Assembly (NCBI GenBank): GCA_943914775.1
Contig: CALUDH010000006.1
Span: 5,291 to 69,290, forward strand
Direction of reading: 5' to 3'
From: an uncultured Candidatus Saccharibacteria bacterium
GTDB lineage: Bacteria > Patescibacteriota > Saccharimonadia > Saccharimonadales > Saccharimonadaceae
Length of the DNA: 64,000 nt
The position numbers were made by a program, and so were the translations under genes. Each line of letters opens with the position of its first letter. The stretch's first letter is position 1. The notes beneath the pieces were generated by a model that was not told the DNA's origin, did not search any database, and saw only the letters and a program-made list of their open reading frames with translations. This document shows positions 51,641 to 54,875 of the stretch, one piece after another.

Positions 51641-51689
51641 ATGGCAGCATTACTTTATGATTCGGCTGGAATTACCTCTGTTTTTCCTA
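51641..51689. repeat. Left arm of a 49-bp near-perfect inverted repeat flanking the AT-rich helicase gene
   Basis: The reverse complement of 51641-51689 matches 54827-54875 at 47 of 49 positions. A degenerate match extends about 12 bp further outward. The arm overlaps the -35 region of the helicase promoter. Confidence 0.85.
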
Positions 51690-51714
51690 ACAATAACACG
51701 ATATAATTGTTATC

Positions 51715-54700
51715 ATGAACCACGCTAGCATTTTAAGTGAAATAGTTAAGACAATAAAAGAGCTTGATGAAAAACAAACACTATATATTCTCAAGGGATT
51801 TAATTTTATATCTGACCAGTTAGAGCAACTGGATTTCTTATTCCTAAAAGATGAAGTTGTTACAGAGACAAATTTTGACTCACAAAATAACCTTCGAAAG
51901 CTACTATCAGGCGATAAGGCGTTCTTTGCTTGGTATGAAGACCTAATTTTTCTTGATATAAATCAAAAGATTGGCGGTGTAAAGGACTTTACGAACTATA
52001 CAATCAAGATAATTGAAAACGATCTGTTTTTTAATTATTATCCAGACTTTAATTCTGTGAATGTAGGTGATAAATACTTAAAATACAACGCCGATACAGA
52101 CAATATTGTTCAGCTGTATTATGGCGATATTGCGATCGACAACAACCAAGCATTTGTCGTCTATAACGATGTATCCGACAAAGAGATAACAAAAATCAAA
52201 ATATCTGAATTATTACCGACAAACTTTGTTAGTGGTGATGGCGAAATTGTCGAAATGCCGGAGGAAAGCGATAATATCTCATTTGCAGTATTAGTTAAAG
52301 AGATTATCAGCAAAAATGTAACTGAAATAACGATTTTAAAAACAAGCGATAGTCAAGATGTAAAAATTAAAAACCTAACAAAACTACTTAAATCGTTAGG
52401 CGTTAAAATATCTGCACGCAAATATTCAACGTCAACTTACAAAGTTGATGATACCGATTACGACCAGTATGAAGCTATACTGAAGCGAAAGAATGACAAT
52501 TTTAAATTTAAAGACCTAAAAATATACAAGGACCCATATGAGGGCAATGAACTGATTAATATTAATCAATCAGTAATCGTAGATAAAATCGTCAAAAATG
52601 TTGAACTGGCACAAAGAGAAGAATCTTTCCGAGATATTTTTGTGACAGCCCCCACTGGCTCTGGTAAGTCTGTAATGTTTCAAATACCAGCAGTATATAT
52701 TGCTGAAAAATATGATTTACTGACAATAGTAGTCACTCCTTTGATAGGCTTAATGAATGATCAAGTAGTAAACATTAAGGCACTAACCGAAAAAGCGGCA
52801 ACCATTAATTCTGATTACACACCGATAGAAAAAGAGCAGACTCTAGAGAGAGTCAAAAGCGGCGAGGTGTCAATACTATATCTATCGCCAGAATCACTAC
52901 TTTCAAACACCGATATCACAAATCTTATTGGCGAACGCAAGATTGGTCTAGTAGTGGTTGACGAATCACACATTGTAGCGACTTGGGGCAAAAGTTTCCG
53001 TCCTGATTATTGGTACTTAGGTGATTTTATAGCCAAACTACGCAATAGCGAAAAGAGTGATCATCATTTTCCGATCGCTACTTTTACGGCAACATCAACA
53101 TTTGGCGGTGATGACAATATGTATTCCGATATTGTTGAATCACTAAAAATGACTGCAGAAAAGTTTATCGGTAATGTAAAGCGAGATGATATCGTGTTTG
53201 ATATTCGTCATCACACAAAAGACCACGCCTATAAAGAGGAAAAGCTTGAGACTGCCGCCAAAGAAATAAACAAATTACAAAAAACAAAAGATAAAACTCT
53301 TGTCTATGTACCATATACTAGCCATATTACTGATCTTATGGCAAAAATGGATGACCAGACTAAAGTTGGTAAGTATTATGGCGGAATGTCAGCGGGTGAA
53401 AAAAATGAAACTTTGGAAAAGATTAAAACTGGTGAAGAGAATATCATTCTAGCGACAAAAGCATTTGGTATGGGAATTGATATTGATGATATTAAGAATG
53501 TGTATCATTTTGCTCCAACTGGCAACATCGCCGATTATGTACAGGAGATCGGTCGTGCCGCTCGCAAAAATGGCATGACTGGCGTAGCGGCAACAGATTT
53601 TTATAAAGAAGATTTCCGCTATATAAATCAGTTATACGGTATGTCCAGTATTAAACACTGGCAAATTATAGCTGTTTTAGAAAAGATTTTTGACATCTAC
53701 CGCCGTAAGAATAAGCGTAACTTCCTTGTATCTCCTATGGAATTCTCATATATCTTTAACGATGTACCGCCACATGAAATTGACGCAAAATTAAAAACTG
53801 CCTTACTTATCATTAAAAAAGACTTTGAAATACAAAGTCGATCTAATTACATACCACTGATATTTAAGCCAAGGAGTATGTTTACTAATGGCTATTTCAT
53901 GGTCAATGATGAAATGATAGACACACTGAAGCGGTTTGGAGTATGGCAGTTCTTTAAGAAACTTAATTTACCTCGCAAAGTAGAAACTATAAGAGATGGC
54001 TTACTAACGACCATATATTCACATGGTGATACTTTTGTACTCGATTTTAAGAAGCTATGGGAAAATAAGTACAAAGATATGTCGTTCGCTAGTTTTAAGC
54101 ATAATTTCTTTTCTAATACATTAGACAGGGATTTTAAAGTAGGTGAAAAGCTAGTTGCAAGATCAATTATTCAAATCAATGGAGGCGACGTTAAGTTTAG
54201 TGAAATAAACAATAGATTAACTGCTACTATGAATAGTTTACAGGAAATTCTTGATGAACTTCGTCAAAATAATAAGCATTTTACTATCAAAGAATTAGCG
54301 AAGCGTATTCGTGAAAAGACTACCATTAAAAAGCCCTACATAGCCGACATGTTGGCACAATCAATCATTCATATACTAAATCGCGTGCCCATTAGTAATT
54401 TTATTCAAAGCCCATTTGCAACATATAACAGCCAGACTGATAAATGGAATATTCAAAATATGACTTATGAAACACGAATAAAACGAATAGTCGGCTCTGC
54501 TTATAGATCTCTGCCACCAGAATCAACACAGACTGTACGATTTACAGGTGCTGACTTAAAGAGCAATCTGGATCTTTTATTAGCGCAGCTTTTAGAAATA
54601 CTGGAGCTTGCAGACGTAAAAATATCTGCTGGCAATAATCCAGAATTCTTCATACGTGTCAACAGTCCTAGTGCTATTGAAAAAATAGTGCGTAATAAAT

Positions 54701-54861
54701 CATATACAAGTAAAACTGTTAGTCTGGTTGACTATAAGCATAAAGAATCATGCCGTCTTATGGAAAAATTCTTTACCGAATTAATAAGCGACGAGGATCG
54801 CTGGAATTTTATTGAACAATATTTTCTAGGAAAAACAGAGGTAATTCCAGCTGAATCATAA
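51715..54861 (+). CDS. RecQ-family DExH (SF2) helicase with large unrecognised N- and C-terminal regions, in an AT-rich island
   Basis: Motif I is TAPTGSGKS. Motif II is VVDESH. The RecQ-diagnostic block is ATWGKSFRPDY. The helicase-C region reads ILATKAFGMGIDI...HFAPTGNIADYVQEIGRAAR. The N-terminal ~300 aa and C-terminal ~400 aa have no recognised motifs. GC is about 33% against about 50% in the flanks. A TATAAT box at 51702-51707 lies 7 nt upstream of the ATG. Confidence 0.75.
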   Translation: MNHASILSEIVKTIKELDEKQTLYILKGFNFISDQLEQLDFLFLKDEVVTETNFDSQNNLRKLLSGDKAFFAWYEDLIFLDINQKIGGVKDFTNYTIKIIENDLFFNYYPDFNSVNVGDKYLKYNADTDNIVQLYYGDIAIDNNQAFVVYNDVSDKEITKIKISELLPTNFVSGDGEIVEMPEESDNISFAVLVKEIISKNVTEITILKTSDSQDVKIKNLTKLLKSLGVKISARKYSTSTYKVDDTDYDQYEAILKRKNDNFKFKDLKIYKDPYEGNELININQSVIVDKIVKNVELAQREESFRDIFVTAPTGSGKSVMFQIPAVYIAEKYDLLTIVVTPLIGLMNDQVVNIKALTEKAATINSDYTPIEKEQTLERVKSGEVSILYLSPESLLSNTDITNLIGERKIGLVVVDESHIVATWGKSFRPDYWYLGDFIAKLRNSEKSDHHFPIATFTATSTFGGDDNMYSDIVESLKMTAEKFIGNVKRDDIVFDIRHHTKDHAYKEEKLETAAKEINKLQKTKDKTLVYVPYTSHITDLMAKMDDQTKVGKYYGGMSAGEKNETLEKIKTGEENIILATKAFGMGIDIDDIKNVYHFAPTGNIADYVQEIGRAARKNGMTGVAATDFYKEDFRYINQLYGMSSIKHWQIIAVLEKIFDIYRRKNKRNFLVSPMEFSYIFNDVPPHEIDAKLKTALLIIKKDFEIQSRSNYIPLIFKPRSMFTNGYFMVNDEMIDTLKRFGVWQFFKKLNLPRKVETIRDGLLTTIYSHGDTFVLDFKKLWENKYKDMSFASFKHNFFSNTLDRDFKVGEKLVARSIIQINGGDVKFSEINNRLTATMNSLQEILDELRQNNKHFTIKELAKRIREKTTIKKPYIADMLAQSIIHILNRVPISNFIQSPFATYNSQTDKWNIQNMTYETRIKRIVGSAYRSLPPESTQTVRFTGADLKSNLDLLLAQLLEILELADVKISAGNNPEFFIRVNSPSAIEKIVRNKSYTSKTVSLVDYKHKESCRLMEKFFTELISDEDRWNFIEQYFLGKTEVIPAES

Positions 54862-54875
54862 AGTAATGCTGTCAT
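54827..54875. repeat. Right arm of the 49-bp inverted repeat; it overlaps the last 11 codons and the stop of the helicase gene
   Basis: TAGGAAAAACAGAGGTAATTCCAGCTGAATCATAAAGTAATGCTGTCAT matches the reverse complement of 51641-51689 with two mismatches. Confidence 0.85.

Follow-up and report, generated by a model that had tools for sequence, protein, structure and literature searches.

What is an inverted repeat of ∼100 bp doing around a single helicase gene in the genome of an uncultured Candidatus Saccharibacteria bacterium? The repeat lies in a 64,000-nucleotide stretch of contig CALUDH010000006.1 (hereafter, the window), where it brackets one gene encoding a 1048-aa helicase of superfamily 2 (SF2). 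An earlier note on this DNA proposed that the arms of the repeat might be the ends of a mobile element, parts of an invertible or excisable switch, or binding sites for a regulator. The analysis described here points to a different reading, in which the gene and the repeat are parts of a defense-type islet inserted at the CCA end of the tRNA-Gln(UUG) gene and the repeat is a recombination-active duplication rather than a pair of transposon ends. We give this reading an even chance of being correct. The observations that carry it are the insertion itself, its empty counterpart in sister strains, the presence of other cargo at the same site, the position of the arms inside the inserted segment, the decay and lineage-specific homogenization of the arms, and a difference in orientation between lineages.

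The islet at tRNA-Gln and its alternative alleles

The AT-rich islet occupies positions 51587 to 55196 of the window and has a G+C content of 0.31 to 0.39 (∼0.33 overall) versus ∼0.48 in its flanks. Its right end abuts the tRNA-Gln(UUG) gene (55197 to 55271, minus strand), recognized by ARAGORN and matched by the Rfam tRNA family with 63 bits, and the 3′ CCA end of this gene is the point of insertion. The earlier note predicted that relatives might have an empty site, with the region upstream of the SulP gene directly abutting tRNA-Gln. Such a junction was predicted from the points at which homology with a sister strain breaks off, and it was then sought in metagenomes. It exists in 10 metagenome contigs (L096 to L105), whose flanks are 94 to 96% identical to those of the window on both sides. 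In these contigs, the tRNA-Gln sequence ...CCCAGCCA is followed directly by AATTATGCAAACG, joining position 51586 to position 55194 or 55197. The junction reads ...CATAATT|TGGCTGGG..., and the two BLAST segments overlap there by 7 nt (ATTTGGC/ATGTGGC). Given that the empty site joins at both flanks, the insert comprises 3614 bp (51587 to 55200) with TGGC at each junction; this length includes one copy of the TGGC. The left copy of this 4-bp direct repeat is found at 51583 to 51586, and the right one, at 55197 to 55200, belongs to the 3′ end of tRNA-Gln. The suggestion of a discrete, horizontally acquired insertion is supported.

The same site accommodates other DNA. In two contigs, L090 and L094, whose neighboring RrnaAD methyltransferase is identical to that of the window, a different islet of 5.2 kb (L090, 6862 to 12084; also seen in L095) occupies the site that corresponds to window positions 51587 to 55196, at the CCA end of tRNA-Gln and bounded by the same two nucleotides. 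It encodes a large serine recombinase (LSR) split into three open reading frames (ORFs), a helix-turn-helix (HTH) protein, a type II restriction enzyme (PADLOC profile REase_II, E = 2e-50), an N6/N4 methylase, and a DUF3892 protein. The direct repeat at its junctions is CAGCCA (6 bp), while that of the window islet is only GCCA (4 bp). The statement of the earlier note that no recombinase is encoded inside or nearby is accurate for the window, where the ORF list and Pfam searches revealed the helicase as the sole ORF of the islet and no integrase or recombinase gene; it fails for the site, at which sister strains carry the serine-recombinase islet.

Copies of the helicase cassette with 84 to 92% protein identity were found in four genomic contexts, all of them at tRNA-Gln 3′ ends: that of the window (context A); a syntenic one in L007, L009, L126, and L128 (context B); tRNA-Gln(CUG) of “Candidatus Nanoperiomorbus periodonticus,” including L008 (context C); and tRNA-Gln(UUG) on a JGI contig (context D). 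The tRNA-Gln(CUG) gene of “Ca. Nanoperiomorbus” is a second hot spot with three alleles, namely, an empty one with 77 nt of native DNA, which the insertion replaces in context C, a 3557-nt helicase islet, and another islet of 3844 nt. The latter (L115, 6831 to 10674; also L116; both from “Ca. Nanoperiomorbus periodonticus”) encodes on the minus strand, downstream of tRNA-Gln(CUG), a protein of 1160 aa that has no match in Pfam or PADLOC and no inverted repeat around it; it is a possible new defense gene.

In its insertion at a tRNA 3′ end, atypical G+C content, empty and alternative alleles, and defense-like cargo, this islet resembles the known tRNA-associated islands and defense islets, and recombinase-bearing elements use its site too. 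It differs from them in having no integrase of its own, a junction repeat of only 4 bp, and a single gene. An internal inverted repeat of ∼100 bp around the cargo is not among the described features of such islands.

The inverted repeat inside the islet

The cores of the two arms, 49 nt each, are located at 51641 to 51689 and 54827 to 54875 and are identical at 47 positions (96%), exactly as first reported. The core sequence is AWTTACCTCTGTYTTTCC. A 46-nt probe from the left arm matches the 64-kb window only at 51644 to 51689 (plus strand) and at 54827 to 54872 (minus strand, 2 mismatches); shuffled sequences yielded no matches, in agreement with the view that a chance origin is very unlikely. 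The degenerate outward extension mentioned in the earlier note is genuine, but its length had been put at ∼12 bp and the arms reach ∼100 nt. In a repeat search they grow to 51606 to 51689 and 54827 to 54910 (84 nt ungapped, 88% identity). With a single 3-nt indel, BLAST and global alignments extend the similarity, at 83 to 86%, from ∼51587-51590 on the left to 54925-54928 on the right. The local alignment of the two arms has a score of 140, well above the mean of 25 under the null (z = 37). Each arm combines a near-perfect core with a degenerate outer part, located at 51587 to 51640 in the left arm (plus strand) and at 54876 to 54928 in the right arm (minus strand). The outer parts are ∼75 to 78% identical and differ at 12 of 52 sites, compared with 2 of 49 in the core (Fisher p = 0.008). 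The outer left part begins at the islet boundary and contains a poly-C run (51603 to 51609) that has seven residues in the window and L112 and six in L010, L012, and L087. The CTTAAG-like flanking sequences noticed earlier turned out to be located within the degenerate outer parts of the arms and do not represent target sequence.

The arms bracket, as claimed, exactly one gene with its own TATAAT promoter. The helicase gene occupies positions 51715 to 54861 (plus strand) and is the only long ORF between the arms; the TATAAT −10 box (51702 to 51707), located 7 nt before the ATG, is conserved in all contexts in the alignment and implies a putative leaderless or near-leaderless mRNA. The overlaps noticed earlier were both confirmed on the sequence. 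The left core doubles as the upstream (−35) region of the helicase promoter. The right arm spans the final 11 helicase codons and the stop codon, its core (minus strand) encoding the non-conserved C-terminal tail KTEVIPAES* right behind the family-conserved ...YFLG.

Since de Bruijn assemblers can generally be confused by inverted repeats, an assembly artifact deserves mention, although nothing else speaks for it. The same arms recur in independent ENA, Logan, and NCBI assemblies (L001 to L006, L010, L012, L086 to L093, and L112). The identical architecture is replicated in over 20 contigs that different studies obtained with different assemblers (megahit and metaSPAdes contigs of ENA, Logan, and NCBI metagenome-assembled genomes), each with its own point differences, and these affect each arm independently. 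Because of this recurrence, the chance of an artifact is practically nil. The arm sequence is absent from the empty sites and from the other-cargo alleles at both hot spots. Accordingly, the presence of the arms is tied to that of the helicase, in support of the earlier interpretation.

Are the arms terminal inverted repeats (TIRs)? The left arm ends at the islet boundary, but the right arm ends at ∼54928, 268 bp inside the islet, which extends to 55200. In context A, the DNA beyond the right arm consists of a 116-nt hairpin module, a 50-nt arm-like segment, and a 100-nt spacer. In context C, both arms are internal, lying 117 and 108 nt inside the islet. There is no target-site duplication next to the arms, and the 4-bp TGGC flanks the whole islet instead. 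A non-autonomous transposable cassette that is mobilized in trans by a transposase from the genome or a phage could still be envisaged if the 268 bp by the tRNA resulted from an earlier or separate event. Arm lengths of 50 to 100 bp are compatible with insertion sequences (IS) and with Tn elements, one of the arms has its outer end at the islet boundary, and the shortened right arm in context B almost directly abuts the tRNA. Further, the cassette is found in four genomic contexts, among which both orientations relative to the tRNA are represented, and the arms of one element are more similar to each other than to the arms of other elements. However, an intermediate allele with the spacer only was not seen among the empty-site contigs, and all four contexts combine a tRNA-Gln 3′ end with a homologous tRNA-proximal spacer, which fits transfer of the whole islet. 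The window contains just the two arm copies, with no solo arms and no other cargo between arms; when viral contigs were searched with the arm core, four chance 18-mers turned up that could not be extended, and the other-cargo alleles provided no further copies either. In addition, the arms are decaying in three of the four lineages, and the sole gene has no transposase fold or domain. Thus, the proposal that the arms are TIRs was not borne out, and a trans-mobilized cassette seems unlikely. In comparison with IS elements, miniature inverted-repeat transposable elements (MITEs), and composite transposons, the likeness is limited to two inverted arms of 50 to 100 bp around a gene and to one arm end that marks the insertion boundary; the other arm is internal, and target duplication, transposase, extra copies, and solo arms are all missing here. 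Analogies with integron attC sites and casposons were rejected as well, as the cassette lacks a single palindromic attC at its 3′ end and encodes neither Cas1 nor PolB.

The overlap of the left arm with the promoter region suggests another possible function, regulation at the DNA level. The left arm would provide upstream and −35 elements or an operator, and its inverted copy would serve as a second operator (by looping) or as an inward antisense promoter, tuning the expression of a potentially toxic helicase. Indeed, the left core, which overlaps the −35 region, is the best-conserved non-coding stretch across contexts, conservation is significantly higher in the core than in the outer arm, and the right arm contains a weak inward promoter-like match (54883 to 54855, minus strand; TTGAAT-17-TATGAT, 9/12). 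However, promoter-like matches are not enriched (17 versus 14.6 ± 4.3 in shuffles), the repeat does not include the actual TATAAT, which is without a counterpart at the right end, and divergence of the right arm is evident in contexts B, C, and D. Most members of the helicase family have no such repeat, and the islet encodes no regulator. Regulation therefore has only a small chance of being the correct explanation.

A further option is pairing of the arms in a single-stranded molecule, either as a duplex between the 5′ and 3′ regions of the mRNA or as a panhandle formed by single-stranded DNA during natural transformation, which would stabilize the molecule or promote its processing. All but one of the 13 to 14 mismatches are transitions, 9 of 13 are compatible with G-U or G-T pairs on the plus strand, and Saccharibacteria are naturally competent (PMC10633639). 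However, the genome-wide ratio of transitions to transversions in this lineage is 5-12:1, which makes the transition bias uninformative, and the 9:4 split is not significant; these features were therefore rejected as a sign of selected pairing. The −10 box is located downstream of the left arm, so that the helicase mRNA should lack that arm, and a role at the DNA level, preferred already in the earlier note, is indeed the more plausible. An Rfam search of the islet matched the tRNA alone, with nothing in the arms, and arm pairing has been lost in the sister lineages. Selected pairing is thus very improbable.

The helicase and its relatives

The 1048-aa protein has a RecQ-type core (residues ∼300 to 645). 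In Pfam, only the DEAD, Helicase_C, and ResIII domains are recognized, and its N-terminal (1 to 290) and C-terminal (650 to 1048) regions have no Pfam or PHROG family and could not be assigned to any fold. Sequence matches in the PDB are to RecQ, RECQL5, and WRN over residues ∼300 to 620. The scores against TIGR01389 (207 bits versus a 640-bit cutoff) and TIGR00614 (181 versus 220) come from alignment of the core only, and the RQC and HRDC domains were not detected with Pfam, so this is not a bona fide RecQ. Over its full length, the protein matches the PADLOC profile C3a193 (“poss. alt. Cas3”), with E = 1.7e-160 and residues 51 to 1041 aligned to profile positions 41 to 982 of 983; the core also partly matches DpdF and PsyrT. 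The protein thus shares the RecQ-type SF2 core and, in the case of C3a193, the entire length with the RecQ-like defense helicases (C3a193, DpdF, and PsyrT/RqlH). In contrast to them, it stays below the RecQ equivalog cutoffs and stands without a partner gene, as the islet contains no cas genes, no regulator gene, and none of the usual helicase partners (Dpd cluster, PsyrA, or Cas). Domain and fold searches showed no likeness to transposases, integrases, or nucleases.

The family comprises 1678 matches in Saccharibacteria, streptococci, clostridia, and bacilli; cultured phages have no full-length homolog. The homologs encoded on Firmicutes plasmids adjoin genes of type I restriction-modification (R-M) systems, HNH endonucleases, and toxin-antitoxin systems. 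Saccharibacterial homologs with 52 to 55% identity also adjoin tRNAs. One of them, a 55% homolog from Saccharimonadales (L013, 5655 to 13737), is encoded between tRNA-Asn and a convergent, overlapping gene for an intact LSR; the next genes code for a DUF4268 protein, a terminase-small-subunit-like protein, and a ParB-methylase, in what looks like a prophage-like element. LSRs are encoded within 5 kb of the homolog also in L029, L039, and L040. From these neighborhoods and family relationships, the helicase is most likely an anti-phage gene or a gene directed against mobile genetic elements.

On plasmid pW142 of Enterococcus faecium (L125, 3611 to 8054), a 33% homolog that directly follows a type I R-M system is preceded and overlapped by a gene of the sigma-70 family; in Firmicutes, the two genes may form a two-gene arrangement. 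Among the carriers, split, prematurely stopped, or internally deleted helicase genes were seen in L117 (7065 to 10210), L009 (6001 to 7566), L086 and L093 (995 aa), and L089. The occurrence of several such broken genes indicates that the cargo is often decaying.

Divergence, inversion, and spread of the cassette

How did the repeat arise? The inner ∼20 nt of the left arm are conserved upstream of the gene in a 68% identical relative that lacks the inverted repeat (L106). The right arm begins right behind the family-invariant ...F1037 L1038 G1039, leaving a non-conserved tail of 9 to 10 residues. At ∼55 to 60 more distant homolog loci, there is no inverted repeat related to the arms of the window. 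The simplest interpretation of these sequences is that the left arm represents the native promoter-upstream region of the gene and that the right arm would be an inverted copy of it, fused behind the conserved C terminus. Such an inverted duplication onto the 3′ end of the gene would have occurred in the common ancestor of the clade delimited by at least 84% identity. Two of the distant homologs are flanked by repeats whose sequences are unrelated to the arms, an internally palindromic 46-nt motif on either side of the gene in L027 (1421 to 1466 and 4757 to 4802) and a 178-nt direct repeat of 99% identity in L035 (5745 to 5922 and 9241 to 9418).

The subsequent history of the arms differs between lineages. 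In the window, they are 96% identical in the core and 83 to 88% identical overall, in context C (L008) the identity is 76%, and in contexts B and D (L007, L009, and L107) it is ∼65 to 75%; arms of different elements are ∼70% identical to each other. Even the outer parts score 57 and 35 within the same element, versus a null of 15 ± 3, far above the between-element values. The right arms in contexts B, C, and D share the motifs TGAAYT and AYACGA; in their place, the right arm of the window bears two motifs of the left-arm type (TGGAATTACC and ATGRCA). The arms have therefore decayed in some lineages and become homogenized in a lineage-specific manner. In the proposed scheme, they would drift apart, to 65 to 76% in the three sister lineages, and would occasionally be re-homogenized by gene conversion. 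In the lineage of the window, left-arm sequence would have overwritten the right arm, with the 47/49 core as a recent conversion tract. An argument from shared indels in a MAFFT alignment of all arms was not used because the alignment of the outer parts was inconsistent. The repeat can be viewed as a clear illustration of how an inverted duplication is subject to decay in certain lineages and has been renewed, probably by gene conversion, in another.

The cassette also differs in orientation. The tRNA-Gln gene lies 3′ of the helicase gene and convergent with it in contexts A and B, and 5′ of it and co-directional in contexts C and D. At the same time, the tRNA-proximal ∼150 nt of context A are collinear with those of context C (L008, 5764 to 5925) at 73% identity (z = 13.9, with none of 2000 shuffles scoring as high) and with the spacer of context D (L107) at 65% (z = 9.7). 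Local alignment alone gave weak values for this homology (z = 3 to 5), and the matter was settled by end-anchored global alignment with controls, in which unrelated islet ends had z of ∼0. Given this collinear homology next to the tRNA despite the opposite direction of the gene, the cassette must have turned inside the islet at least once. Recombination involving the arms would have flipped it relative to the tRNA-proximal end.

This variation brings to mind a programmed invertible segment, with the arms as crossover sites at which a site-specific recombinase flips the cassette and alters its expression or that of its neighbors. The segment is bracketed by inverted repeats, its orientation relative to the conserved tRNA-proximal end varies between lineages, and serine recombinases are frequently encoded at these hot spots. 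However, flipping would leave both the promoter and the whole ORF unaltered, as they are contained in the segment, and none of the four contexts has an invertase gene next to it. The ∼25 assemblies of context A show a single orientation, as do the ∼8 of context C, and arm identities of 65 to 76% in most lineages are poor for a site-specific system. The switch idea of the earlier note is supported indirectly and historically, by the difference in orientation between lineages; polymorphism within a species was not found. The Hin/Gin/Fim-type switches and other invertons likewise have inverted repeats around a segment of variable orientation; in this case, there is no adjacent invertase, and with both the promoter and the gene inside, inversion would have no obvious effect. 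The arms, which are long and degenerate, include coding sequence in part, and no polymorphism is seen within populations. A programmed switch is accordingly quite doubtful.

Under the preferred reading of a defense-type islet with a recombination-active duplication, the islet would spread between strains and species as a whole and would not transpose from its arms. Loci identical to that of the window are present in GTDB genomes of Candidatus Saccharibacteria (L010 and L012). Within the lineage of the window, the islet is almost invariant while its flanks differ by 3 to 4%. The exception is a mosaic, hypervariable tract in the helicase gene (53000 to 54400, plus strand), which has up to 29 differences per 200 nt between strains of the same lineage (L087 and L112; ∼14%), compared with 0 to 1 in the rest of the islet. 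The helicase alleles of contexts A, B, and C are mosaics of one another. The near-invariant islet between diverged flanks and the mosaic alleles together indicate that the islet is young and horizontally exchanged, and the tract suggests recombination-driven diversification of the region behind the helicase core. Polymorphism had no power as a gauge of purifying selection on the arms, as the islet is nearly invariant outside this tract. The hosts of context B have a P-type ATPase and a tRNA-U5 methyltransferase that are only 51% and 63% identical to those of the window, while the helicase is 92% identical. Thus, one helicase cassette moves between hosts whose core proteins are only 51 to 63% identical. 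The natural competence of Saccharibacteria (PMC10633639) offers a possible route; the transfer probably involves natural transformation followed by recombination at or near the tRNA, or else a recombinase supplied in trans. If the islet can be excised as a whole, the circular or excised junction would read ...AAAAAGTGGGCCA|CATACAAGATT....

A more speculative function can be considered for the arms themselves. Arms of ∼100 bp could act as recombination handles of a defense cassette without a recombinase, by which it is captured, exchanged, and flipped at tRNA-Gln hot spots through homologous recombination of the host after transformation, or as ends recognized by a trans-acting enzyme. We regard this as improbable; if true, the handles would represent a cassette-shuffling mechanism specific to naturally competent, ultra-small bacteria of the candidate phyla radiation (CPR).

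Several points weigh against the reading preferred here. On its outer side, the left arm ends within 3 nt of the islet boundary, as would be expected of a TIR, although we attribute this to truncation of a formerly longer repeat. The defense role is suggested by neighborhood and family context. Gene conversion is deduced from two diagnostic motifs and from identities over just 50 to 100 nt. Context A is not a simple arm-by-arm inversion of context C, as the hairpin module and the segment 55045 to 55095 lie between the spacer and the right arm, and ∼25 assemblies revealed no polymorphism of orientation within the species, minor forms being invisible in consensus assemblies. Finally, selection for some function could be the reason why the repeat has persisted in four lineages and was renewed in one.

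The repeat opens no new category of element, and the hot spot with its swapping cargos and the alternative 1160-aa cargo are the more promising leads. The tRNA-Gln 3′-end hot spot of oral Saccharibacteria is documented here with three kinds of cargo, the helicase, the type II R-M system with LSR fragments, and the 1160-aa protein. It provides a testable example of tiny genomes that exchange defense genes without obvious mobile-element machinery and includes a candidate single-gene system.

A second variable spot lies 5′ of tRNA-Gln, between the RrnaAD gene and the tRNA (window positions 55272 to 55344). In some strains (L098, 3148 to 8436; L105, 2229 to 6306), it holds 4 to 5 kb with a GDSL-lipase-like protein of 1048 aa and several small ORFs. 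The ORF beyond the tRNA in L098 was considered as a relative of the helicase and rejected, its equal length being coincidental.

Among the other parts of the islet, the AT-rich 116-nt module (54929 to 55044, plus strand) outside the inverted repeat forms a long hairpin (54932 to 54954 with 54988 to 55010, an inverted repeat of 23 nt at 91%; RNA fold of −17.3 kcal/mol, z = −4.05) and is a possible terminator of the helicase gene. The tRNA-proximal end of the islet (55045 to 55196, minus strand) comprises the segment of ∼50 nt at 55045 to 55095, which shares homology with the outer portion of the left arm in the Nanoperiomorbus copy, and the spacer of ∼100 nt. The resemblance of 55012 to 55090 to a relic of the helicase promoter and 5′ end was not significant (z = 1.7). 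In the terminator scan, the spacer was found to contain a terminator-like hairpin for tRNA-Gln (55157 to 55174, minus strand). Another, conserved hairpin with a 16-bp stem is located in the SulP upstream region (51525 to 51561) and adjoins tRNA-Gln in the empty-site strains, where it probably serves as the tRNA-Gln terminator; in the window, this role has probably been taken over by the islet's own hairpin.

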